Positions 4,969 through 16,176 of a stretch of DNA of 62,437 nucleotides are shown here, one piece after another. Each line of letters opens with the position of its first letter. Position 1 is the first letter of the stretch. The notes below the pieces were generated by a model, which saw only the letters and a list, made by a program, of their open reading frames with translations, searched no databases and was not told the DNA's origin. This DNA comes from Candidatus Saccharimonadales bacterium. Lineage in GTDB: Bacteria; Patescibacteriota; Saccharimonadia; Saccharimonadales; 2-12-FULL-41-12. The translations under genes and the position numbers were made by a program. Where the stretch lies: contig DASUKF010000021.1 in the NCBI GenBank assembly GCA_036278875.1, positions 1-62,437 of the forward strand, given 5' to 3'.

Positions 4969-6999
4969 ATGGATGAGAGTATAGCCGACATAAAAGGCGT
5001 GGGTGAGGGCACTGCCAAAAAGTTAGCTAATATAGGCATACATACCAAGGAAGATTTGATATGGAATTTTCCGCGCAAGTACGAAGATTACTCCGCGCTT
5101 ACACCTATAAATAAGCTCAGGCCAGGCCAGGTCACGATAAAAGCCACGATAAAACAGGCGGTTGGCCGCTACGTGCGCAGGGGCATGCATATAACCGAGG
5201 CCGTAGCCAGCGACAAAACCGACAGCGTACGTCTGGTCTGGTTTAACCAGCCATACCGTGCCAAAGGGCTGAAGATAGGCCGGGAATATTATATTTCCGG
5301 CAACTACGAGCTCGGCCGTGGGCGCTTCGCTATCATGAACCCGGGCGCCGAACTGGTCAGCAATTTTCAGGTCAATACCGCGCGTATAATACCTATTTAC
5401 AGGGAAACCAAAGGCCTGCGCTCCGCTGCCATCAGAAAAATCATGGCCGGTATCATGGACGATATCCGGCTTATCGATGAAGGATTGCCGGATTATATAG
5501 TGAAGGATCAGGAACTGGTAAGCCGGGCAGAAGCCTTGCTGGGTATACATTTCCCGGCCAAAGTTGACGATATATCACGCGCTAAAAAACGTTTGGCCTT
5601 CGAAGAAGTTTTCACGCTTGTCTTAACCTCGCTTATCAATAAGAACGAAAATATGCGCGCCAAGGCGCTTAAAGTGCCTTTCAACGAAAAACTTGCCAAA
5701 GAATTCGTGAGCAAACTTCCGTATAAGCTCACCAATGCCCAGCGCAAGGTAACCTGGCAGATTTATAAGGATATAGAAAAGGATATCCCGGCCAACCGGT
5801 TAATCCAGGGCGATGTTGGTGCGGGCAAGACCGTGGTTGCTGCCATGGCCGCACTCATGGCGATGAGCGAAGGCTTCCAGGTGGCCCTTATGGCACCGAC
5901 CGAGATACTGGCGCGTCAGCATGCCAAGACCTTGTCAGAAATGTTCAAGCCTTTGGGATTAAGCGATAGGATAGTCCTGCTTTTAGGTTCAATGAAAGCC
6001 GCCCAAAAACGAAACGCCCACAAAAGCATAAATGAAGGCAGGGCGGAACTTATCATAGGCACCCATGCCCTTATCAGCGAGAAGGTTGATATGCATAAGC
6101 TCGGGCTGGCAATCATCGATGAACAGCACCGTTTCGGCGTGCAGCAGCGCAAGGAACTTCTCAAGAAAGCCGGACATATTCCCCATCTTATATCTATGAC
6201 TGCTACGCCGATTCCCCGCTCGCTGGCCCTCACGGTTTACGGCGAACTTGATATATCCGCACTGGATGAAATGCCACCGGGTCGCAAACCGCCCAAAACC
6301 AAGATAGTTTCGCCGAATTCCAAGAAGCAACTGTATAAGGCCATAGATAAGGAGCTGGAAAGCGGCCGCCAGATGTTCGTCGTCTGCCCGCTTATAAGCG
6401 AGTCCGACAATCTGAACTTTCTTTCCGCGGAAGAGGTTTATGAGGAACTCTCAAAGAAAATATTCCCCCACCGCAAGACGGCTTTGCTGCATGGCAGGAT
6501 GAAGACGGAAGAAAAAGAAAAGATAATGAACGATTTCGTGTCCGGCAAAATCGATATTCTGGTTTCAACTACGGTTATTGAGGTAGGAGTTGATGTTCCG
6601 AACGCCACGATAATGCTTATTGAAGGCGTAGAAAGGTTCGGCTTGGCCCAGATACACCAGCTGCGCGGGCGTATAGGCCGCGGAGAACATCAGGGATATT
6701 GCTATCTGCTCATGAGCGACAGTTCGGCGCCTTCCAGACGCTTGCGGGCGTTGGAACAGACGAATGACGGGTTCAGGCTGGCCGAATTGGATTTGGAGCT
6801 GCGCGGACCTGGAGCCATCTACGGCCTTACCCAGCACGGCGAGCTGGACCTGCGGCTGGCCGATATCAGCGATACCAGGTTCATAGCAACCGTGCGCTCA
6901 AGTGCGCAGGAGTTCATTGACAAGGGCGAAAAGCTGTCCGATTATCCGTGGCTGGAAGAGGAAGTGCACAAAAACCGCCTGATTACGACCCTTAATTGA
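4969..6999 (+). CDS. recG: ATP-dependent DNA helicase RecG
   Basis: 676 aa. N-terminal wedge/OB region, Walker A GDVGAGKT, DEQH box (IIDEQHRFG), TATPIPR and QLRGRIGRG. Confidence 0.93.
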   Translation: MDESIADIKGVGEGTAKKLANIGIHTKEDLIWNFPRKYEDYSALTPINKLRPGQVTIKATIKQAVGRYVRRGMHITEAVASDKTDSVRLVWFNQPYRAKGLKIGREYYISGNYELGRGRFAIMNPGAELVSNFQVNTARIIPIYRETKGLRSAAIRKIMAGIMDDIRLIDEGLPDYIVKDQELVSRAEALLGIHFPAKVDDISRAKKRLAFEEVFTLVLTSLINKNENMRAKALKVPFNEKLAKEFVSKLPYKLTNAQRKVTWQIYKDIEKDIPANRLIQGDVGAGKTVVAAMAALMAMSEGFQVALMAPTEILARQHAKTLSEMFKPLGLSDRIVLLLGSMKAAQKRNAHKSINEGRAELIIGTHALISEKVDMHKLGLAIIDEQHRFGVQQRKELLKKAGHIPHLISMTATPIPRSLALTVYGELDISALDEMPPGRKPPKTKIVSPNSKKQLYKAIDKELESGRQMFVVCPLISESDNLNFLSAEEVYEELSKKIFPHRKTALLHGRMKTEEKEKIMNDFVSGKIDILVSTTVIEVGVDVPNATIMLIEGVERFGLAQIHQLRGRIGRGEHQGYCYLLMSDSSAPSRRLRALEQTNDGFRLAELDLELRGPGAIYGLTQHGELDLRLADISDTRFIATVRSSAQEFIDKGEKLSDYPWLEEEVHKNRLITTLN

Positions 7000-7031
7000 T
7001 TTTTTATCTAAAATATTGTAATCTAACTAAA

Positions 7032-7736
7032 ATGGCTAACTATCCATATTTGGAAAGATGTGCTGAGGCTGTAGCTCAATTAGGACACCGCACGCAAGAT
7101 CTGGCTTCGCGCAAGCCGGGCAAGCGCTTGGGCGCCAGCGACAACTACAGGGTGCAGAGCATAGGCGAGGGCGTTACCGGAATATACCCCAGCCTGGCCT
7201 TGACTATGCTGGGTTCTATAGCCGTTCCGGTTTCTCAGCACCTGGCACTTAAAATGCCGCGGCGCGACAGTGGGCCCCTGGAAAGGTTAATATACGAGGT
7301 TGCCGCAATCGATGAGATTACCAGAAGAGCGCCTAAACTTGCCGAAAAAATGCCGGCATTCATGGGGCTACTGGCGGTGGACGGCGCCGATAGACCGCTG
7401 GCTATCATCACTGAAGATGCTACCAGGTGCGGCAGTTTGCCTATAGAGCCGATGCCCGCAAGTCCGCAGTCGGTGCACGAGCTAAAAAGCGGTTTTGGTA
7501 AAGAAGCTGAAGAAGCAGTGGGGGAAATTGAGCTGGAGAATTCCGTAGCTTTCGATGTGGGCGGCACTGAGAGATGGCTCGATTTCACACCGTCGCCGGT
7601 TTATGCAGCTGCCAGTCTTAGCGACCCGATAACCGTAGTAAAGAATGAGGTAAGAAGCCGACAGAATGAACTTACGGTGCTTATACCCGATGATTCCGTT
7701 TTGGCTGAGGCCGTAAGCTGTATAGTAAAAGTATGA
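7032..7736 (+). CDS. Hypothetical protein, stop overlaps the rsmD start (ATGA)
   Basis: Open frame 6996-7736. ATG at 7032 is preceded by TAATCT (7019-7024), and TTG at 6996 is the alternative start. No recognisable motifs. No competing long ORF. Confidence 0.55.
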   Translation: MANYPYLERCAEAVAQLGHRTQDLASRKPGKRLGASDNYRVQSIGEGVTGIYPSLALTMLGSIAVPVSQHLALKMPRRDSGPLERLIYEVAAIDEITRRAPKLAEKMPAFMGLLAVDGADRPLAIITEDATRCGSLPIEPMPASPQSVHELKSGFGKEAEEAVGEIELENSVAFDVGGTERWLDFTPSPVYAAASLSDPITVVKNEVRSRQNELTVLIPDDSVLAEAVSCIVKV

Positions 7737-8263
7737 GAATAATCGCCGGCAGCCTGGGTGGCAGGCAGTTCGACGCGCCGAAAGGCCGCAGGACACATCC
7801 GATGAGCGAGAAGGCCCGCGGCGGACTGTTTTCCGCTCTGGGCGATATTGAAGGCCTGAGTATTCTGGACGCTTTCGGCGGCAGTGGCGCTATTTCCTTC
7901 GAGGCTGTAAGCCGCGGAGCGAAACATGCCATAGCGATAGATATTGATAAGAATGCCGTTAATACTATTGCCGGTAATGCTAAGAAGCTTGATATTAAGG
8001 ATAAAATCAAAGCTATCAGGGCTAATTCATCCGGCTGGAGCGATAACAACCCCGATGCCCGGTTCGGCATTATCATCTGCGACCCGCCGTTCGAGCAGAT
8101 AAAGATAAATATTATTCAAAAACTTGCCGGTCATCTTGCGGATAACGGCATATTCATAGCCAATATCCCCGGCTCGCTTGAGCCGTTCGAGCTGCAGCTG
8201 CTGGAAATAGTCAAAACCAAAAATTACGGCGACACCACACTGGTGTTTTATAAACCTATCTGA
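7733..8263 (+). CDS. rsmD: 16S rRNA (guanine966-N2)-methyltransferase RsmD
   Basis: 176 aa. MRIIAGSLGGR N-terminus, SAM motif LDAFGGSGAISFEAVSRGA and catalytic DPPF. Confidence 0.85.
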   Translation: MRIIAGSLGGRQFDAPKGRRTHPMSEKARGGLFSALGDIEGLSILDAFGGSGAISFEAVSRGAKHAIAIDIDKNAVNTIAGNAKKLDIKDKIKAIRANSSGWSDNNPDARFGIIICDPPFEQIKINIIQKLAGHLADNGIFIANIPGSLEPFELQLLEIVKTKNYGDTTLVFYKPI

Positions 8264-9221
8264 TTTTCTGCAGGCGGCGCATAAGGGGCAATGAGGCCCG
8301 GTAGGCTCTGTAACGGCCAGGATTCACAGGTAGATGCCAAGTGCCGCCAAGGGCAATATCTTCGCCGCCGAACTTGCGTTTGAAGGTGGAAAATCCTGCC
8401 CAGGGGTGGCTTGTCGGCGCGCCGGGCGGCGCTACGCCGAACAGGTCGAACCATCTTACACCCCGCCCTAAGGCATTTTGCATCGCCTGCCATACCAGGA
8501 CCGTGCCTGCCTCCGCTTTGCGGGCCTCCGGATGAGAGCCTGCATAGGCATAGTGGCCGACCTTGCCGCTTTGCAGGATGATTGCGCCGGCAACCGGCTT
8601 TTTCTCATAATAGGCAAGTTCTAAAAAAGCCGCGCCTTTCGGCATGAGTATTTCGGCCTGTTTTTTAAAATAATCGGCGTTATGCAGGCTGATTTTTTTA
8701 CGGCTGGCAACTTCGCCGAGCATATCGGTGAACAGCTTTATATCCTTCGGCTCGGTCGATGTGCGGAAGCTGAGTCCGCGTTTTTCGGCCCGGTTGATAA
8801 GGTTGCGGAATGTCGCTGACAGCGCGCTCCACCGTTTGGCTTCGGCCAGACTCAGGTCATTGACCACCGTATATGCGGGATTATAGGCTTTTCCGGCTTT
8901 TTTAAGCCCCAGTTTCCTTGCGTTATAGTATAGTCCGTTTCCGAACGGCTCTACGCTCACCCACGACAAACTTCTCCTTTTAGCTTCAGTCCTTATCGTG
9001 CCCAAAGCTTCGGGCAAAACATCCTTATCTTTCAGGAACGGTCCGTAAGGAGTCAGCCAATAATCGCCCAGTTTGGTAGACTGTCTTATCAGCAGGCAGG
9101 ACCAGCCCTTGCCTTTCAGCCGGACTGCGTCTTTGCCCAGGGCTTTTTGGAACTCCGCCCATTCGTCCGTCTGGGTTATAGGGCAGGAGCTAAGAAACTT
9201 ATGTTCGCTAGAAGAAAGCAT
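8256..9221 (-). CDS. FemAB-family peptidyltransferase (peptidoglycan interpeptide bridge formation, FemX-like)
   Basis: 321 aa. N-terminal QTDEWAEFQKALG...YWLTPYGP and C-terminal YAYAGS...WFDLFGV...FSTFKRKFGG match the FemAB family pattern. Confidence 0.8.
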   Translation of the reverse strand: MLSSSEHKFLSSCPITQTDEWAEFQKALGKDAVRLKGKGWSCLLIRQSTKLGDYWLTPYGPFLKDKDVLPEALGTIRTEAKRRSLSWVSVEPFGNGLYYNARKLGLKKAGKAYNPAYTVVNDLSLAEAKRWSALSATFRNLINRAEKRGLSFRTSTEPKDIKLFTDMLGEVASRKKISLHNADYFKKQAEILMPKGAAFLELAYYEKKPVAGAIILQSGKVGHYAYAGSHPEARKAEAGTVLVWQAMQNALGRGVRWFDLFGVAPPGAPTSHPWAGFSTFKRKFGGEDIALGGTWHLPVNPGRYRAYRASLPLMRRLQKIR

Positions 9222-9290
9222 CGGATTAATTGTATCAAAAACAACTTTTCTTGACTTTTAGTGAAAAAATTATAAAAATGATAAACCAGT

Positions 9291-9920
9291 ATGTCAAAAA
9301 ATAACGGAAGAAGTCCGGCGGCGGCCGAGGCCATAGGCGAAAGTTTGTCCATGAACGGCAATGGCCGCGTCAGAGCCGTAGGCACATTCGCGGTATGGAG
9401 GCGGCAAAGTACCGGGTGGAACAGGTCTTACAAAGTAAACAGTAATTTTCGCCGCGAACTTGGCAGTGAGTCCAGGGTATTTGACGGTCCTGGCAGGAGA
9501 TTTTACCTGATTACGCCGGCAGACGGGGCGATAGTGCTGGGGAATGTAGGCGGCAAGTTCGGAAAGATAAAACACCCGCTTAAGCGCAGGGTAGACAGCA
9601 TAGATGGAAGCATAGGCCTGCGGGTATCAGGATTCAGCTTATCACGGCCGAATAGGGACGGAAACAAGACGGTTTCGTTGAAACTCGCTTACGAAGGGGA
9701 GGAAGAAGGACCGGAAGAAGAAAGAGAAAGTCTGCTGAGAAGTTCGCGGGCCAGCGAACTGGGGCTTCCGGGTTTGGCTATGGCGGTTGAGGTGGCTACG
9801 GTCCCGGCCGAGAACAAGCGGGCCGATGTGGAGCCTCTAATTGACGAGCATATGCCTATTGGTATGCCGCTTGATTTTAACCGCCCGGTACTAACATATA
9901 CTCTGGCTCAACCGGAATAA
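9291..9920 (+). CDS. Hypothetical protein
   Basis: 209 aa ORF and the only long frame here. Upstream are TTGACT (9251-9256) and an A/T-rich -10. No recognisable family. Confidence 0.45.
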   Translation: MSKNNGRSPAAAEAIGESLSMNGNGRVRAVGTFAVWRRQSTGWNRSYKVNSNFRRELGSESRVFDGPGRRFYLITPADGAIVLGNVGGKFGKIKHPLKRRVDSIDGSIGLRVSGFSLSRPNRDGNKTVSLKLAYEGEEEGPEEERESLLRSSRASELGLPGLAMAVEVATVPAENKRADVEPLIDEHMPIGMPLDFNRPVLTYTLAQPE

Positions 9921-9951: not shown

Positions 9952-10036
9952 GGGGATGTGGTGGAATTGGTAGACACGCTAGTCTTAGGAACTAGTGCCG
10001 CAAGGCGTGAAGGTTCAAGTCCTTTCATCCCCACCA
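9952..10036 (+). tRNA. tRNA-Leu, anticodon UAG, type II (long variable arm), CCA encoded
   Basis: Manual cloverleaf. Acceptor stem GGGGATG/CATCCCC. Anticodon stem CTAGT/ACTAG with loop CTTAGGA. Variable arm TGCCGCAAGGCGT. T arm GAAGG-TTCAAGT-CCTTT. Discriminator A followed by CCA. Confidence 0.9.
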
Positions 10037-10046
10037 GACTTTCGAT

Positions 10047-10633
10047 ATGAAGCAACACCATATTATCTATGTACCCGGCATACTTGATGACATTTATCAT
10101 GCCCAGAGTCTGGCCGCAGCGACCTGGAGGATTCATGGAGTACATGGACATTGCCACCCCGTACCTTGGGCGGGAAAAGAAAAATGGCAGCCGAAATTCC
10201 AAAAACTTTTAGATGAGATAGACCGTTACAGGGCGGAGGGCCATGATGTATCGCTTGTTGGCGCAAGCGCGGGTGCCAGCGCTGTTTTGAACGCTTACGC
10301 TGAAAGGGCTGACAGCGTAAAAGGCCTGGTTTATATATGCGCGAAGATAAACGCTCCGGAAACAGTCAGCAGAAAGACATATGCCGAAAACCCCGCGTTC
10401 AAGACATCATTGGAGCTCCTGCAGAAGAATCGTAAAAGGTTTAAACCTGAAGACAAGGCCAGGATGCTGTCGTTAATTCGGAAAAAGACGGGACAGTACC
10501 TTACGAGGCTACAATTATTTCCGGCGTCAAAGAGGAAAAACTGCCTCCGCTAAGGCACGGACGGGCCATAATGTACGCTGTGACTATAGGCGCAAGGGAC
10601 ATCGCGCGTTTTGTGAAAAATATGGATTCCTAG
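10047..10633 (+). CDS. Small alpha/beta-fold serine hydrolase, reading frame interrupted (-1) at the A5 run 10482-10486
   Basis: Frame 0 (10047-10553) carries the nucleophile elbow GASAG. The -1 frame from 10487 reads DGTVPYEATIISG...LRHGRAIMY... and stops at 10631-10633. The junction is CGG AAA AAG. Confidence 0.6.
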
Positions 10634-11373
10634 GCTTTTTTAAGCTGCTGGTAGCGAAACGGCAATACCAGAGAATAGGCTATAGTTGCGGCCGCTCCGG
10701 CCAAAGGTCCGAGCACGGGGATGACACCGATGATTCCTGCGAAAATAGCGACCAGTATGGTTACTCCTATTGCGGCGTAAATAAGCCCCATCTTGCCTAT
10801 GGCCTTATCATTGCTTTTCTTTATAGCATCCATGACGCCGAGGTCCTTATCCACCATGTAGTAAGGCGCCATTACAAGTCTGCCCAATGCTATTATGCCC
10901 GGCACAATCAGCAGTATGAACCCGCCTATTATTATCAGGCCTGAAAGAAGGCTTAAACCGAGTATCCTGAAGAAATACTTCTTCCCGTCTTCAAAAAGCT
11001 CGCTCAAATCAGGTTTTTTTCCGGAGGTACTCTTCACCTGAAGATTTATGGACATCGCGTACAGGAAAATGCCTATCGCCAGGAAAATCAGCACAAACAG
11101 AAAACCGGTGCCGATAATTGCGGCCAGCTGAGTACCGCTCAGACCGCCCCAGTTGTTTATCGGCTGGTAATTCCAGTAGCCGCGCTCTTTATAATGGTCG
11201 TTTCCCGAGGCGCTCCCTACGGCGCTGATAATGGTTAGGATATTGACTACGGCAAAGACCTGCCAGTTTTTCTTGACGATATCCAGGCTTTTGCCCAATA
11301 AGTCGAAAGCGCTGCCTATGGGCTGTTTATCCTTTGTATGTGACTGCTTTTTAGCTTTAGTTTTACCCGCCAT
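10630..11373 (-). CDS. Integral membrane protein (about 5 TM helices), function unknown
   Basis: 247 aa with several long hydrophobic segments. SD AGGGGG lies 4-5 nt upstream of the ATG. The stop overlaps the stop of the convergent hydrolase gene (CCTAGG). Confidence 0.7.
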   Translation of the reverse strand: MAGKTKAKKQSHTKDKQPIGSAFDLLGKSLDIVKKNWQVFAVVNILTIISAVGSASGNDHYKERGYWNYQPINNWGGLSGTQLAAIIGTGFLFVLIFLAIGIFLYAMSINLQVKSTSGKKPDLSELFEDGKKYFFRILGLSLLSGLIIIGGFILLIVPGIIALGRLVMAPYYMVDKDLGVMDAIKKSNDKAIGKMGLIYAAIGVTILVAIFAGIIGVIPVLGPLAGAAATIAYSLVLPFRYQQLKKA

Positions 11374-11435
11374 TATTACCCCCTGTTGACTATCTATTAT
11401 TTAAGCACACAAGCCGGCTTTTAGGAATAAATGTT

Positions 11436-11464
11436 TTGCGTGTTATTAGCATATGTGTTATAAA
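11436..11464 (+). promoter_or_regulatory. Candidate promoter of the his leader: TTGCGT, 17 nt spacer, extended -10 TGtTATAAA
   Basis: -35 at 11436-11441, TGT at 11456-11458, -10 at 11459-11464. The ATG at 11471 lies 6 nt after the hexamer. Confidence 0.5.
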
Positions 11465-11470
11465 AGACGT

Positions 11471-11527
11471 ATGTTCAAAAGAACTTTTCAGCATCATTCT
11501 CATATACTGCCGGAGCGTGTCGGTTAG
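11471..11527 (+). CDS. Candidate his-operon leader peptide MFKRTFQHHSHILPERVG (18 aa)
   Basis: Three His codons fall in a 4-codon window (CAT CAT TCT CAT, 11492-11503). The ORF sits between a promoter and an intrinsic terminator, directly upstream of hisS-hisGHAFIE. Confidence 0.45.
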   Translation: MFKRTFQHHSHILPERVG

Positions 11528-11569
11528 TTAGCTTTTTCCTTGAAAATCCTACGCCGGACTCGCTCCGGC
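11509..11569 (+). promoter_or_regulatory. Candidate antiterminator pairing of the his attenuator
   Basis: GCCGGAGCG (11509-11517) is the exact reverse complement of CGCTCCGGC (11561-11569), which is the terminator loop plus 3' arm. Confidence 0.5.
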
Positions 11570-11575
11570 GTTTTT
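11551..11575 (+). terminator. Intrinsic terminator within the hisS leader
   Basis: ACGCCGGA-CTCGC-TCCGGCGT is an 8 bp GC-rich stem with a 5 nt loop, followed by a T run. Confidence 0.7.
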
Positions 11576-11623
11576 AGTACCTTATTTATTAGATAGAATA
11601 TACTGTTAGAAAAGAAGGAAACC

Positions 11624-12919
11624 ATGAAAAAGAGAATAGAACCTACTATATTAAAAGGAACAAGGGATTATTTCCCTGGCGATATGTCCAAACGCGACAA
11701 GGCGATGAACGTGATAAAAGACACGTTCAGGAGCTTCGGTTACGAGCAGATAGAAACTCCTATCCTAAGCCGCGCCGAAACGATATTGGGCAAAAAAGTT
11801 GAAGAAGACGATCAGAAAATGGCCTACACGTTCAAAGATTACGGCGGCCGCGACATAGCACTGCCGTTTGACCTGACTATGCCTTTCGCACGCTTCGTCG
11901 CAAGTAATTACCAAGAACTGCCGATGCCGTTCAAGCGCTTCCAGCTGCAGCGGGTATGGCGCGCCGAACGCCCGCAACGAGGCCGGCTGCGCGAATTCTA
12001 CCAGTGCGACGTCGACATAATCGGCTCGGACCAGCTGGTATGCGAGGCCGAGATGGCCAAGCTGATATTCGCGGTCTTCGATAACCTGAAGATAAAGGAT
12101 ATTACGGTCAGGGTGAACTCACGTAAACTGCTAAATGAGGTCCTGCTGGGCTATGGAGTGGACAAATCCAAGCTGGTGAAAGCCATCCGGCTGATAGACA
12201 AGCTGGACAAGATAGGGGATAAGGCGGTAGCCGAGCAATTGGGCAAAGAAGGCATAGGAAACGGAGCCGAGATAGTCGACGTGCTCAAGCCTGCCGGAAA
12301 CAACGCCGAAACGCTTGAAAGATTGAAAGATTACGACACTTCGGATCTACGCGAATTTTTGGAGTTATGCGAAGAATTTTCGGTGGATACGGGCAGGATA
12401 ATGCTTGACCCGAGCCTGGCCCGGGGCCTGGATTACTACACGGGAATTACTTTCGAAGTAGTTTCAAGCGACGCAAGTCTGGGTACCATCAGTGCCGGTG
12501 GCAGATACGATGACCTGTGCGGCATGTTCGCAAATAAAGACATGTCAGGAGTCGGTATATCCTTCGGTTTTGAGAGAATAATGATACTTATGGAAGAGTC
12601 CAAGCTGCTGACCGACAACAAGACGAATTCCAAAGTGCTGGTGACCGTATTTGACGAGAAGTCTTTGAGCGATTCGATTAAGATTTACAACTCGCTGCTT
12701 AGTTCAGGCATACCGGCCGAGCTTTATATGGACAAAGCCAAGCTGGCAAAACAGCTGAAGTTCGCAGACAAGAAGAATATCCCCTTCGTCGTCATTCGGG
12801 GTCCTGAAGAGAAACAATCTGAAGAAGTGCTGGTTCGCCGTATGTCCAGCGGCAACCAAAAGAATATTCCTGCGACCCAACTCGCATCATACATTGAGAA
12901 CTATTATGAGGCGCAGTAA
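11624..12919 (+). CDS. hisS: Histidyl-tRNA synthetase (full length, eukaryote/archaea-like subtype)
   Basis: 431 aa. KGTRDYFPGDM, LPFDLTMPFARF, motif 2 WRAERPQRGRLREFYQCDVDIIG, motif 3 GGRYDDL...GISFGFERI, and a C-terminal anticodon-binding domain. SD AAGGAA. Confidence 0.93.
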   Translation: MKKRIEPTILKGTRDYFPGDMSKRDKAMNVIKDTFRSFGYEQIETPILSRAETILGKKVEEDDQKMAYTFKDYGGRDIALPFDLTMPFARFVASNYQELPMPFKRFQLQRVWRAERPQRGRLREFYQCDVDIIGSDQLVCEAEMAKLIFAVFDNLKIKDITVRVNSRKLLNEVLLGYGVDKSKLVKAIRLIDKLDKIGDKAVAEQLGKEGIGNGAEIVDVLKPAGNNAETLERLKDYDTSDLREFLELCEEFSVDTGRIMLDPSLARGLDYYTGITFEVVSSDASLGTISAGGRYDDLCGMFANKDMSGVGISFGFERIMILMEESKLLTDNKTNSKVLVTVFDEKSLSDSIKIYNSLLSSGIPAELYMDKAKLAKQLKFADKKNIPFVVIRGPEEKQSEEVLVRRMSSGNQKNIPATQLASYIENYYEAQ

Positions 12920-13529
12920 CGTAAGAATAGCGATACAGAAATCCGGCAGACTCCGCGAGAAGAGTGAGAAATTGCTGAAGACCTGGGGAATAGACTGCCG
13001 GATAAAGGATAAGAACGTGCTGGTTCTGCCATGCAATGAAGGCAAGTACGAGATTCTTTTCGTGCGCTACGGCGACATACCCCAGTACGTGCAAAGCGGC
13101 GCGGTGGATTTCGGAATAGTCGGCCAGAACATACTATATGAGAACAAATTCAACGTGCGGGTTATAAAGGAGCTTGGTTTCGGAGAGTGCAAGCTGATAA
13201 TCGCGGCTCCGAAACGCTCAACCATAAAAACCTCTAAGGACCTGGAAGGCGAAAGAATAGCTACGTCTTATCCGAACAGCCTGAGAAAATATCTAAAGCA
13301 GGAAGGCTGCGGTGCGACAATCGTCAAGATACGCGGCGGAGTGGAGGCTGCGCCGGCGATAGGGCTGGCGGACGCTATTTGCGATATCACCCAGACCGGC
13401 ACGACGCTCAAGGCCAACGGACTGAAGATAATTTCCACTATTCTGGAGTCGCAGGCCGTACTTATAGAATCCAAGTTCACGACTTCCAAGATGGAGCGCT
13501 TCAAGAGCGAGTGCCTGGAGATATCGTGA
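12906..13529 (+). CDS. hisG: ATP phosphoribosyltransferase, short form (HisG-S, 207 aa)
   Basis: MRRSNVRIAIQKSGRL... is a typical HisG N-terminus, and DAICDITQTGTTLKANGL is the PRPP-binding motif. There is no C-terminal regulatory domain. The ATG at 12906 overlaps the hisS end by 14 nt. Confidence 0.9.
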   Translation: MRRSNVRIAIQKSGRLREKSEKLLKTWGIDCRIKDKNVLVLPCNEGKYEILFVRYGDIPQYVQSGAVDFGIVGQNILYENKFNVRVIKELGFGECKLIIAAPKRSTIKTSKDLEGERIATSYPNSLRKYLKQEGCGATIVKIRGGVEAAPAIGLADAICDITQTGTTLKANGLKIISTILESQAVLIESKFTTSKMERFKSECLEIS

Positions 13530-14125
13530 TAGCCGTTATAGACTATGAAGCCGGCAACATCGGCTCGGTTGTGAATGCCCTCGCTAAACTAAAGGCTGAA
13601 TTTGTAGTCGCATCCGACCCTAGGATTATAAAATCCGCCGCCGGTGTGATATTCCCGGGGCAGGGCAGGGCAGGGCCTGCTATGGATTCTCTTAAAAAAA
13701 CCGGCCTGGACAAACTTCTACCCGTTTTGGAACAGCCTTTTTTAGGCATATGCCTGGGTATGCAATTGATGGTTGATGAATTGGAAGAAGACGGCGTGCG
13801 CGGGCTTTCAATTATCCCCGGCCGCTGCATAAAATTCAGAAGGATCAAACCCGTGCCCCATATGGGCTGGAATAATCTGAATATTACAAAAAGTTTGCAA
13901 TTGCTGGAAGGTGTCAAAGACAAAGAGTACATGTACTTCGTGCATAGTTATTTCGTCGAAGCTCCGGAGAAGTTCGTAGCGGTCACTACCGATTACGGCG
14001 GCGAATTCGCTTCCATAATCGCAAAAGACAATTTCTACGGAGTGCAGGCCCACCCGGAAAAGTCCGCAGGTACCGGCGAAAAGATATTGAAAAACTTTCT
14101 GAAACTTTGCGGAGAAAAGCCATGA
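13526..14125 (+). CDS. hisH: Imidazole glycerol phosphate synthase, glutaminase subunit
   Basis: The GTG start overlaps the hisG stop (GTGA). VIAVIDYEAGNIGSV, catalytic Cys in GICLGMQL, HSY and HPEKS. Confidence 0.9.
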   Translation: MIAVIDYEAGNIGSVVNALAKLKAEFVVASDPRIIKSAAGVIFPGQGRAGPAMDSLKKTGLDKLLPVLEQPFLGICLGMQLMVDELEEDGVRGLSIIPGRCIKFRRIKPVPHMGWNNLNITKSLQLLEGVKDKEYMYFVHSYFVEAPEKFVAVTTDYGGEFASIIAKDNFYGVQAHPEKSAGTGEKILKNFLKLCGEKP

Positions 14126-14832
14126 GGATTTATCCTGCTATTGATTTAATAGACGGGAAAGCCGTACGTCTGGAGCGCGGCGATTATGCCAAAAAAACGG
14201 AATATTCCACCGAACCGGCTGAAGTCGCCAAAGATTTTGCCGCCGAAGGGGCGGAATATATCCATGTAGTCGATCTGGACGGTGCCAAAGCTAAAAAAGC
14301 TGTCAACCTGGAAGCCGTCAGGGCTATCTGTGAATCCGTGGATATTCCTATCCAGGTCGGCGGCGGCATCAGAAGTGCCGAATCTGCCAAAGTTTTGTTG
14401 GATTATGCGGACCGGATCATCATCGGTACGGTCGCTATAACCGAGCCGGAAACACTTAAAGGTATGCTTGATAAGTTCGGCCCCGAACGGGTAGTGGTAT
14501 CTGTTGACTACAAAGCCGGCAAACCGGCTGTAAACGGCTGGCTGGAAGAGGTGGAATTAACTACGGAGGCCCTGCAGGCCCGGCTGAGCGGCTTGGGTAT
14601 AAGAGTAGTCATAGTGACCGATACGGCTTTGGACGGGCTTATGGGCGGCCCTAATGTGCTTCTGATGAAGCAGTGGAGTGAAGCGGGCTTTGAAGTAATC
14701 TGCGCCGGCGGGGTCGCAAGCAGACAGGATGTAAAAGAATTGAAAGACGCAGGAATCGACGGAGCGATAATAGGCAAAGCTCTATATGAAGGCAAAATAG
14801 GCCTGAAGGAGGCTATAGATGCTGGCAAATAG
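14122..14832 (+). CDS. hisA: ProFAR isomerase
   Basis: ATGA overlap with the hisH stop. MRIYPAIDLIDGKAVRL, and a (beta/alpha)8 pattern with GGGIRS and GKALYEG. Confidence 0.88.
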   Translation: MRIYPAIDLIDGKAVRLERGDYAKKTEYSTEPAEVAKDFAAEGAEYIHVVDLDGAKAKKAVNLEAVRAICESVDIPIQVGGGIRSAESAKVLLDYADRIIIGTVAITEPETLKGMLDKFGPERVVVSVDYKAGKPAVNGWLEEVELTTEALQARLSGLGIRVVIVTDTALDGLMGGPNVLLMKQWSEAGFEVICAGGVASRQDVKELKDAGIDGAIIGKALYEGKIGLKEAIDAGK

Positions 14833-15574
14833 AATAATCCCTTGCATGGATATCAAAGACGACCGTGTGGTCAAAGGCACTCATTTCAAGGACCTGGTGG
14901 ACAGCGGCGACCCGCTGGAACTGGCTGTGGAATATGCCGTACAGGGAGCGGATGAACTGGTTCTGCTGGACGTGGCGGCCACCGTAGAAGAACGCAAACA
15001 CCGGGTAGAGCTGGTGCATGCTGTCGCCGAAAAAATCAACATTCCCTTTTCTGTCGGCGGCGGAGTCAGCAGGCTTGAGCATATCCGGGAGCTTCTGAAT
15101 GCAGGAGCCGACAAGGTCTCCATAGGCTCGGCGGCCGTTACCGATACGGATTTTGTACGGCAGGCCTGCGACGAGTTCGGCTCGCAGGCGATAATAGTAT
15201 CCGTAGACCCGAAGAAAAACGGCGATAGATGGGAGGTCTATATAAAAGGCGGCCGCGAAAATATGCATATGGATGCCATAGGATTCGCCCGACGCATGCA
15301 GGACGCGGGCGTAGGCGAACTGCTGGTAAACAGTCTGGACCGCGACGGTACGAAACTTGGGTTTGATATCGAACTTTTAAAACGTATATCGGAAACGGTG
15401 GATATACCGGTCATCGCTTCCAGCGGTGCGGGTAAAATCGAGGATTTCCTTGAAGTTTTTATTAATACTGGCGTCACGGCGGCGCTGGGGGCATCCGTAT
15501 TCCACAGGGGTGAATTTACAGTTGCTCAAGTAAAAACTAAACTAAAGGAGAATAACGTGGAGGTCAGACTGTGA
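14819..15574 (+). CDS. hisF: Imidazole glycerol phosphate synthase, cyclase subunit
   Basis: 251 aa. RIIPCMDIKDDRVVKG, VGGGV, DRDGTKLGFD, ASSGAG. Confidence 0.92.
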   Translation: MLANRIIPCMDIKDDRVVKGTHFKDLVDSGDPLELAVEYAVQGADELVLLDVAATVEERKHRVELVHAVAEKINIPFSVGGGVSRLEHIRELLNAGADKVSIGSAAVTDTDFVRQACDEFGSQAIIVSVDPKKNGDRWEVYIKGGRENMHMDAIGFARRMQDAGVGELLVNSLDRDGTKLGFDIELLKRISETVDIPVIASSGAGKIEDFLEVFINTGVTAALGASVFHRGEFTVAQVKTKLKENNVEVRL

Positions 15575-15891
15575 AAGACAAGATAGATTTTGAAAAGAGC
15601 GGAGGCCTGGTACCGGCCGTCATCCAGGATTCTTCCACGGGCGAGGTATATATGCTGGGCTATATGAACGAAGAGGCATATGAAAAGACACGCTCATCCG
15701 GCTGGGTATATTTTTGGAGCCGGAGCAAAAACAGGCTATGGATGAAAGGCGAGGAGTCAGGGAACAAGTTAAAAGTCGTATCCGTATATGAGGATTGCGA
15801 CTACGACACGCTTTTAATAAAGGTAGAGCTAAAGGGCGAAGCCGTATGCCACACCGGAAATAAAAGCTGTTTTTATCAGGAAATCAAATAG
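15571..15891 (+). CDS. hisI: Phosphoribosyl-AMP cyclohydrolase
   Basis: 106 aa with a GTGA overlap with hisF. LVPAVIQD, WSRSKNRLWMKGEESGN, DCDYDTLL, CHTGNKSCF. Confidence 0.9.
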   Translation: MKDKIDFEKSGGLVPAVIQDSSTGEVYMLGYMNEEAYEKTRSSGWVYFWSRSKNRLWMKGEESGNKLKVVSVYEDCDYDTLLIKVELKGEAVCHTGNKSCFYQEIK

Positions 15892-15900
15892 GAGGTCACT

Positions 15901-16176
15901 ATGACTTTGGACGAATTATATAAGATTATCGAAGAGAGAAAGAAGGAGAAGCCGCAAGGTTCGTATGTAGCCTCATTGTTCGATGAAGGCCCGGCGCGCA
16001 TAACTCAGAAAGTGGGCGAAGAAGCCGTCGAGGTGGTCATTGCCGCCAACCAGGAAAAGAAGGATCGCGTCGTGTCCGAGATGGCGGACCTTTGGTTTCA
16101 CTGCCTGGTGCTCCTTTCCGCGCTGGACATTAAGCCGGAGGAAGTCTACGCAGAGCTGGAAAAAAGACGCAAATGA
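15901..16176 (+). CDS. hisE: Phosphoribosyl-ATP pyrophosphatase
   Basis: 91 aa. SYVASLFDEG, KVGEEAVEVVIAA, EMADLWFHCLVLL. SD GGAGG upstream. Confidence 0.88.
   Translation: MTLDELYKIIEERKKEKPQGSYVASLFDEGPARITQKVGEEAVEVVIAANQEKKDRVVSEMADLWFHCLVLLSALDIKPEEVYAELEKRRK

Follow-up and report, generated by a model that had tools for sequence, protein, structure and literature searches.

We describe here a histidine-codon leader element located 5' of hisS, the gene for histidyl-tRNA synthetase (HisRS), in a stretch of DNA from Candidatus Saccharimonadales bacterium (contig DASUKF010000021.1, positions 1 to 62,437 of the forward strand; "the window" hereafter means this whole 62,437-nt stretch). The element combines a short leader open reading frame (ORF) with clustered His codons, a terminator hairpin and an antiterminator that competes with it, and all of these parts recur in each of the 16 relatives that we compared. 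Based on this anatomy and its conservation, we hold with good confidence that the element is a ribosome-mediated, His-specific transcription attenuator, which would sense His-tRNA(His) and control hisS together with hisGHAFIE.

Leader ORF and its conservation in relatives

The leader ORF reads ATG TTC AAA AGA ACT TTT CAG CAT CAT TCT CAT ATA CTG CCG GAG CGT GTC GGT TAG. An earlier note, made from the letters of the window alone, had proposed it as a leader peptide gene, and a check against the sequence found the coordinates given there for the ORF and for its His codons to be exact:

11471 to 11527, + strand: hisL-like leader ORF, MFKRTFQHHSHILPERVG and stop, 18 codons; homologous ORFs in 16 relatives, with the frame kept
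11492 to 11503, + strand: sensor codons CAT CAT TCT CAT (His8, His9, x, His11); HHxH or HHHxH in 17/17 sequences

His makes up 1.8% of the residues in long ORFs of the window, and only 3 of its 756 ATG-started ORFs of 8-40 codons carry at least three His in four codons, two of these three being the leader itself read from alternative starts. A chance origin of the His cluster is unlikely.

For comparison we used a set of 17 sequences, made up of the window, ten relatives chosen by HisRS protein similarity (L081-L087, L089, L098 and L099; HisRS 60-87% identity, with the leader not a criterion), and six loci (L092-L097) returned by a metagenome search with a DNA pattern. This pattern specified the stop region, the CGGAC of the terminator and a portion of the antiterminator strand, and left the His codons, the promoter and the 3' arm free. 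A homologous element was found ~100-155 nt 5' of hisS in 10/10 of the HisRS-chosen relatives, and all 16 relatives have an ORF with one of the clusters HHxH and HHHxH, together with a terminator and an antiterminator. The leader peptides of the ten HisRS-chosen relatives are as follows:

L081: leader peptide MFYITDQHHAHTSPERVG
L082: leader peptide MFKTYSNQHHLHLSPERLG
L083: leader peptide MVIQLTNQHHSHPLPERVG
L084: leader peptide MVKQLTDQHHTHLLPERVG
L085: leader peptide MVIKLTNQHHIHLSPELSVS
L086: leader peptide MVKQLINQHHTHLLPELVG
L087: leader peptide MIYLTNHHHDHICPELVG
L089: leader peptide MNLLNLTNQHHVHLSPELVG
L098: leader peptide MYLSNLTNQHHSHLSPELVG
L099: leader peptide MNTFNYTNHHHLHLSPELVG

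An in-frame His cluster was likewise present in 6/6 of the pattern-found loci (MVFKVSNQHHVHISPERVG, MRNRLNHHIHTMPELVG, MRLLFNTHHHLHLQPERIG, MIYQTNQHHLHILPELVG, MRYITANQHHSHISPERLG and MFIQTNQHHVHISPERVG), so that the comparison of relatives for which the earlier note had called returned the cluster in 17/17 sequences, including six recovered with a pattern free of His codons. Across homologues the ORF is 17-20 codons long. Its N-terminus drifts, with length differences that are multiples of three only, and the codon inside the His cluster takes at least 13 different forms, always of 3 nt. The His codons are invariant as residues, with synonymous CAT/CAC swaps in four members of the 17-leader alignment (L087, L095, L097 and L099), and no indel separates them from the antiterminator strand in any of the 17 sequences. 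This alignment pattern shows signs of a translated mini-ORF in which His would be the signal. None of the relatives' contigs lists the mini-ORF as a called gene, and the present analysis corrects that annotation.

These same observations bear on whether the leader might be a generic sensor of translation coupling without amino-acid specificity, in which it is incidental that the codons are for His. The window leader has no more than three His codons, and in the folding model described below any slowdown before codon 10 frees the antiterminator arm; the cluster, however, is kept in 17/17 sequences while other N-terminal residues drift, six of the loci were found without a His requirement, and the element occurs exclusively with hisS or his genes. 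We consider such a generic sensor very unlikely and favor a His-specific one.

The link to hisS holds even where the surrounding genes differ. In 5/6 of the pattern-found loci the operon contains a different, ~440-aa HisRS, located directly after the leader in L093 and L096, and after divergent HisG-like, HisE-like or other ORFs in L092, L095 and L097; the contig of the sixth, L094, is 1.4 kb long and stops within a HisG-like ORF, too early for a hisS to be seen. On every contig that extends far enough, the element is tied to hisS, and this holds for two types of HisRS and for several gene orders.

The gene content of these loci is itself varied. The divergent HisG-like ORFs preceded by the same leader lie at 4555-5853 in L092 (oriented), 981-1431 in L094, and 1400-3318 in L097 (oriented), with Pfam HisG scores of ~45 bits in L092 and L097; the ORF is apparently split in L092 and L094. 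L092 has a HisE-like ORF as well, and both L092 and L097 then continue with the 440-aa HisRS, with no other his genes in the stretches examined. In L095 (oriented, 6487-7829) two other genes come between the leader and hisS: a 212-aa ORF without a Pfam match and an AstE/AspA-like gene (succinylglutamate desuccinylase/aspartoacylase type).

Outside this set the leader was not recovered. It is absent from three more distant Patescibacteria (L088, L090 and L091; HisRS 57-60% identity), where a TrpR-family gene (PF01371, YerC-like) lies directly 5' of hisS-hisG, at 3697-4008 in L088, 3638-3922 in L090 and 3086-3370 in L091; this arrangement suggests that in these lineages a protein regulator has taken the place of the attenuator. 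A terminator-like hairpin also lies between the TrpR-family gene and hisS in L090. A covariance model built from the 17 leaders (R1) found no copy in 83 hisS loci, namely these three and 80 from other phyla (L001-L080; HisRS ≤41% identity), the latter being too distant for leader comparison and serving as negative controls. Neither a regular-expression search nor R1 found a second leader copy in the window. Within the loci searched, the family appears confined to a Saccharimonadales clade.

Competing hairpins

Between the start of the leader and hisS lie several strands with alternative pairing partners:

11482 to 11489, + strand: degenerate segment 1 remnant, AACUUUUC in the window and UUAACUAACC in relatives, with weak 1:2 pairing left
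11508 to 11524, + strand: antiterminator 5' strand (segment 2), in the last six sense codons of the leader, from the minimum free energy (MFE) fold, RNAalifold and pair counts
11534 to 11546, + strand: small AU-rich hairpin UUUUUCCUUGAAAA, the apical part of the antiterminator, not conserved in sequence
11551 to 11575, + strand: intrinsic terminator with an 8-bp stem ACGCCGGA/TCCGGCGT, loop CTCGC and T5; the hairpin spans 11551-11571

The terminator hairpin, its loop, its T run and the 48-nt gap between the end of the T tract (11575) and the hisS ATG (11624) all agree to the base with the earlier note. The hairpin contains 8 pairs, 6 of them G-C, its helix alone is worth -13.6 kcal/mol, and it ranks top among 28 terminator-like sites in the first 20 kb. 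Because the upstream gene (10630-11373) is divergent and lies on the minus strand, the terminator ends no upstream gene, and we ruled out that role for it.

The antiterminator uses the same bases. As noted earlier, GCCGGAGCG (11509-11517) is complementary at all nine positions to CGCTCCGGC (11561-11569), and we found that the pairing extends further than these 9 nt, as the antiterminator 3' strand (11553-11570) lies within the terminator and consumes both of its arms; the two structures are mutually exclusive. The MFE structure of 11471-11580 is this antiterminator hairpin, composed of 11508-11517 paired with 11561-11570 plus 11519-11524 paired with 11553-11559, at -33.5 kcal/mol (z = -3.96; 2/200 shuffles fold as well). 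The 5' part alone (11471-11550) forms no significant structure in the window (z = 0.48).

Both structures are kept in the relatives. The RNAalifold consensus of the 17 leaders is the antiterminator, and a hairpin followed by T5-6 is present in 17/17. Standard pairs fill 99.3% of cells in the terminator, with two pairs that change on both sides, and 94.8% of cells in the 16-pair antiterminator, with three such pairs; slid controls, in which the 3' partner was moved by 1-3 columns, gave 27-49% for the two structures. The compensatory changes that the earlier note had proposed to look for are few: the stem CCCCGA/UCGGGG with arm GCCCGGAGC in L087, the arm GAGCUU matched by loop AAGCUC in L095, and the arm GAGCUUG matched by CAAGCUU, one bulge allowed, in L099.

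Most relatives contain an additional helix. In ~13-14 of the 17 sequences, UUAACUAACC just before the His cluster is complementary to GGUUAGUUAA, which lies at the end of the ORF and takes in the stop codon, and in relatives with this 1:2-type hairpin the 5' part alone folds at -10 to -18 kcal/mol. The helix is paired in 83% of cells (vs. 7-46% in slid controls), with covariation not above that of shuffles. By its position in the modeled folds, we take the UUAACUAACC/GGUUAGUUAA helix to be the counterpart of the classical 1:2 hairpin, and in most relatives stalling on the His codons would place the ribosome over its 5' strand. With this helix the terminator-containing state comes close in energy to the antiterminator, with terminator-containing vs. 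antiterminator energies of -31.2/-32.2 kcal/mol in L083, -31.3/-32.4 in L092 and -31.6/-32.8 in L097, and with the terminator state as the MFE structure in L095. According to the same models, the window copy is largely without the 1:2 helix, appears to behave as a three-segment switch, and would default to readthrough without translation.

The leader region could alternatively be an RNA switch bound by a ligand, a tRNA or a protein, T-box-like or similar, in which CAU/CAC is read by tRNA(His) or by a protein rather than by a ribosome. CAU and CAC are indeed His specifier codons, hisS is under T-box control in Firmicutes (PMC2965389), and the TrpR-family genes of the distant Patescibacteria mean that protein regulators of this operon exist. 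Searching 11300-11700 against Rfam, however, gave no match to His_leader (RF00514) or T-box (RF00230), either at the gathering score or at E ≤ 10, and no other relevant family at that threshold, which places the element outside the His_leader and T-box sequence families; matches with E > 3 (LhrC, CRISPR-DR61 and P13) reflect chance or a generic terminator alone. There is also no Stem I-like structure 5' of the arm, the 5' part alone has the z-score given above, and what is conserved is a start codon, a frame, a stop, and three to four His codons around a free intervening codon. We rejected the T-box reading, and regard an RNA switch of any such kind as extremely improbable next to a ribosome-read leader.

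Predicted promoters and proposed mechanism

Two promoter-like regions flank the switch:

11436 to 11441, + strand: -35 hexamer TTGCGT of promoter P1, from sequence reading
11456 to 11464, + strand: extended -10 TGtTATAAA, at a 17-nt spacer from the -35 and 6 nt before the leader ATG at 11471
11594 to 11604, + strand: TAGAATATACT box with overlapping -10-like hexamers TAGAAT/TATACT, between the terminator and the hisS Shine-Dalgarno (SD) sequence

For P1, the coordinates and the spacer proposed in the earlier note are all exact, but a simple promoter scanner did not call it, its -35 having only 3/6 consensus matches. We accept P1 as real because it is kept in relatives: a -35/-10 pair with a 16-18-nt spacer precedes the leader ATG in 16/17 leaders, the -35 being TTGACA, TTGCCA, TTGCAT or similar, and ~10 of the 17 have the TGn extension of the -10. 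The -10 lies 6-8 nt from the leader ATG in 11/17 leaders (window included) and 10-11 nt in three. No SD precedes the ATG at 11471 in the window. The predicted transcription start is on or next to A11471, and this promoter geometry makes leaderless initiation at the window leader a well-founded proposal. A longer leader starting from an in-frame ATG at 11453 (MCYKRRMFKRTF...), 18 nt 5' of 11471, was rejected, as this ATG lies inside the -10 region, occurs in the window copy only and has no counterpart in relatives.

We propose that P1 starts the RNA within a nucleotide or two of the AUG at 11471 and that a 70S ribosome loads onto the leaderless 18-codon ORF, with transcription and translation predicted to be coupled. 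When His-tRNA(His) is plentiful, the ribosome would reach the stop codon at 11525 and cover 11508-11524 during transcription of 11551-11575, so that the masked strand allows the terminator hairpin to form and an RNA of ~105 nt would be released. When charged tRNA(His) is scarce, the ribosome would stall with His8 or His9 in the A site and its leading edge just before 11508, and the free 11508-11524 would pair with 11553-11570, using both terminator arms and permitting readthrough into hisS.

To represent the ribosome in silico, we forced bases from -12 to +14 around the first base of the P site to be unpaired (an assumed footprint) and calculated the probability of the terminator helix, P(terminator), for the 17 sequences. 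With the ribosome at the stop codon, P(terminator) was 0.97-0.999 in all 17, and it fell to ≤0.001 in all of them when the A site held the first His codon, the second or, in HHH, the third. The stall-vs.-stop logic set out in the earlier note holds in these simulations in 17/17 sequences. In the window, with His9 in the A site, the edge of the modeled ribosome lies about one base short of 11508.

Several observations weigh against this interpretation. An A site on the last His (after x) gave mixed P(terminator) values of 0.03-0.99. Covariation is thin, with most of the double changes coming from L087; the arms are near-invariant, as one would expect of a strand with two partners to fit. When the free energies of the two folds of 11471-11580 were compared, as the earlier note had suggested, the equilibrium in the window favored the antiterminator, -33.5 vs. 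-24.3 kcal/mol for the best terminator-containing structure, and this large excess in stability makes termination wholly reliant on the assumed dwell of the ribosome at the stop codon. A leaderless start is probably not shared by the whole family: the -10 box of L089 and L098 lies 17 (or 9) nt from the ATG, and L093 has an SD. Some or most of the transcription of hisS might bypass the attenuator via the box at 11594-11604, and the window operon, which lacks hisD, hisC and hisB, may be unable to make histidine. Finally, terminator-like sites are not significantly enriched in the first 20 kb (28 vs. 22.3 ± 5.4 expected), which leaves general use of intrinsic terminators by this organism unproven.

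This last point would also fit a translation-level or Rho-type attenuator, in which the stall alters hisS translation initiation or Rho access and not intrinsic termination, and there is precedent for the former in mycobacterial leaderless Cys-rich small ORFs that unmask a downstream ribosome-binding site (RBS) (bioRxiv 10.1101/834739). Yet the canonical 8-bp GC-rich hairpin with T5-6 is present in 17/17 sequences, and we found no sequestration of the hisS RBS, whose SD (11615-11619) lies 40 nt past the T tract and is weakly and non-specifically paired in the low-frequency MFE structure of a 180-nt fold. An attenuator of this type is highly improbable in our judgment, and we keep to intrinsic termination as the predicted output.

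The TAGAATATACT box bears on a further alternative. It is conserved in the window and in L081-L086 and partly in L087 and L098, with TATAAT at that place in L089 and L099, and it is kept in relatives down to 68% HisRS identity with variable flanking bases, so it may be a second, attenuator-independent promoter (P2) for basal expression of hisS, or another binding site; if P2 is real, basal expression would make sense, hisS being essential. With hisS transcribed from this box, the ~105-nt unit might chiefly be a stand-alone gene for a terminated small RNA or an 18-aa trans-acting peptide, and its alternative hairpin might be incidental. Besides the conserved box, a conserved peptide C-terminus, PE[RL][VLI]G, speaks for this, as do passages in two studies of Sinorhizobium, according to which attenuator RNAs or leader peptides can act in trans (PMC7298713, PMC7968998). 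The conserved C-terminus, however, coincides exactly with the antiterminator strand, so that RNA pairing explains its conservation; the peptide N-terminus is not conserved; the position before hisS-containing operons is kept despite changes in gene order and HisRS type; and a stand-alone gene does not account for the His cluster or for its constant spacing from the arm. We consider a stand-alone gene unlikely, and a trans role of the leader RNA or peptide could accompany attenuation.

Related systems and the his operon

The element is very probably a known kind of switch, for which full-text literature searches found no report in Saccharibacteria or other members of the Candidate Phyla Radiation (CPR), and we found no prior report in Patescibacteria; leaderless versions and versions linked to aminoacyl-tRNA synthetase (aaRS) genes are already known. 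Like the classical his and trp attenuators of Proteobacteria (hisL, trpL), it has a short ORF, clustered regulatory codons, and an overlapping terminator and antiterminator, in which stalling would free the antiterminator and a ribosome that reaches the stop codon would block it, and most of the relatives add a putative 1:2-type hairpin. In contrast to them, it has no sequence or covariance-model similarity to RF00514, its antiterminator 5' strand lies inside the ORF, its mini-ORF is probably leaderless and not SD-led, its first gene is hisS, and its host belongs to the CPR. The leader of E. coli hisL contains seven consecutive His codons, as compared with three to four here. E. coli pheST is likewise an aaRS operon, and its leader peptide, pheM, responds to the charged tRNA that the operon's own enzyme makes; that system, however, is Phe-specific and proteobacterial, its leader has an SD, and the operon is free of biosynthetic genes.

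Closer parallels come from other phyla. The leaders leuL, trpL, alaL, thrL and ilvL of Streptomyces lividans are leaderless, 12-22 codons long with 2-6 regulatory codons, and lie 5' of leuS, trpS, alaS, thrS and biosynthetic genes, some with a hairpin and U stretch (PMC8079986); the trp, leu, ilv and aroF leaders of Corynebacterium are similar to these (PMC3890552). The leader described here shares with this actinobacterial group the short ORF, here probably leaderless, the hairpin with U stretch found in some of them, and the placement of several directly 5' of aaRS genes. It differs in phylum and has no sequence relationship to them, no His-specific example is listed there, and here the aaRS gene is joined into a his biosynthetic operon. 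Naville and Gautheret predicted His leaders 5' of a Bacillus hisS paralog and of hisZ (PMC2965389), which, compared by description, resemble the present element in having a His-codon mini-ORF and a premature terminator before HisRS-family genes, but are from Firmicutes and not reported as leaderless. The earlier note had presented the leaderless ORF, the short His run and the leading tRNA synthetase gene as three departures from the classical case; all of them have precedents in these reports (PMC8079986, PMC2965389). The mycobacterial leaderless polycysteine small ORFs, which act by translational attenuation (bioRxiv 10.1101/834739), are also sensory first cistrons in which a stall at clustered codons remodels the downstream RNA, with the difference that their output is RBS unmasking, whereas here it would be a canonical intrinsic terminator and the hisS SD is not sequestered. 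Leader peptides arise by convergence according to the authors of the Bacillus study (PMC2965389), and the present element would add a further case of repeated origin before aaRS and biosynthetic genes.

The value of the finding lies in the strength of the comparative evidence, in the lineage, and in the hisS-hisG and pathway questions, the mechanism itself being textbook. To our knowledge almost nothing is known of gene regulation in Saccharibacteria and other CPR bacteria, most of which cannot be grown alone. An attenuator that is conserved and recognisable from sequence would be evidence for coupled transcription and translation, for intrinsic termination, and probably for leaderless translation in these organisms, and metatranscriptomes could gauge histidine or tRNA(His) status through the proportions of terminated and readthrough leader RNA.

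The genes that the attenuator would control, and their neighbors, are arranged as follows:

10630 to 11373, minus strand: UPF0259/YciC-like membrane protein gene, adjoining the leader region and divergent
11615 to 11619, + strand: Shine-Dalgarno sequence AAGGA of hisS, from sequence reading and alignment with relatives
11624 to 12919, + strand: hisS, histidine--tRNA ligase with anticodon-binding domain (TIGR00442, 383.6 bits, cutoff 286.75)
12906 to 16176, + strand: hisG-hisH-hisA-hisF-hisI-hisE, in the same orientation as hisS and tightly packed

The hisGHAFIE genes presumably belong to the hisS operon, and tig is the next gene after hisE in the window. Searching the 62-kb window with tblastn found no hisD, hisC, hisB, second hisS or trpR-like gene. 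L081, L084, L085 and L087 are likewise without hisD, hisC and hisB, while L082, L083, L086, L089 and L099 have hisD and further genes between hisG and hisH, with hisC and hisB clearly annotated in L082, L083 and L086. With these three genes missing, the biosynthetic part of the window operon would stop at imidazole-glycerol phosphate (IGP) and aminoimidazole carboxamide ribonucleotide (AICAR), suggesting that the truncated pathway may serve purine metabolism and not histidine synthesis, and that the physiologically relevant target of the attenuator in the window may be hisS itself.

The hisG gene encodes the short form of the protein (~207 aa from the ATG at 12906) and overlaps hisS by 14 nt. 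Short-form HisG normally needs a HisZ partner, no hisZ is visible in the window, and the full-length window HisRS passes the hisS model and scores under the cutoff of the hisZ model; from this gene arrangement, HisRS may double as a HisZ-type partner of HisG. The coupling of hisS and hisG recurs across Patescibacteria (L088, L090), and we draw attention to it and to the truncated his operon. A more ambitious reading, which we offer tentatively and think doubtful as a whole, is that this is the first documented ribosome-mediated attenuator of the CPR, implying tight coupling and leaderless 70S initiation in ultra-small cells, and that it possibly acts over a HisRS that doubles as HisZ-type partner of a translationally coupled short-form HisG, so that one sensor of charged tRNA would set both tRNA charging and the flux into a pathway truncated to the AICAR/IGP branch point. 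In L087 a stand-alone 104-aa ORF (7335-7649), consisting of an HGTP_anticodon domain, follows hisE.

The two nearest HisRS proteins (87% and 63% identity) are annotated as Candidatus Saccharimonadales, and the neighborhood of recG, an rsmD-like gene, UPF0259 and hisS...tig is common to the window and the contigs of its closest relatives. Elsewhere in the window we observed a sigma-70 promoter with a perfect 12/12 consensus (TTGACA-17-TATAAT; 9269-9297, minus strand) located 5' of a 321-aa minus-strand ORF (8256-9221), as well as a tRNA gene at 9952-10033 on the + strand.

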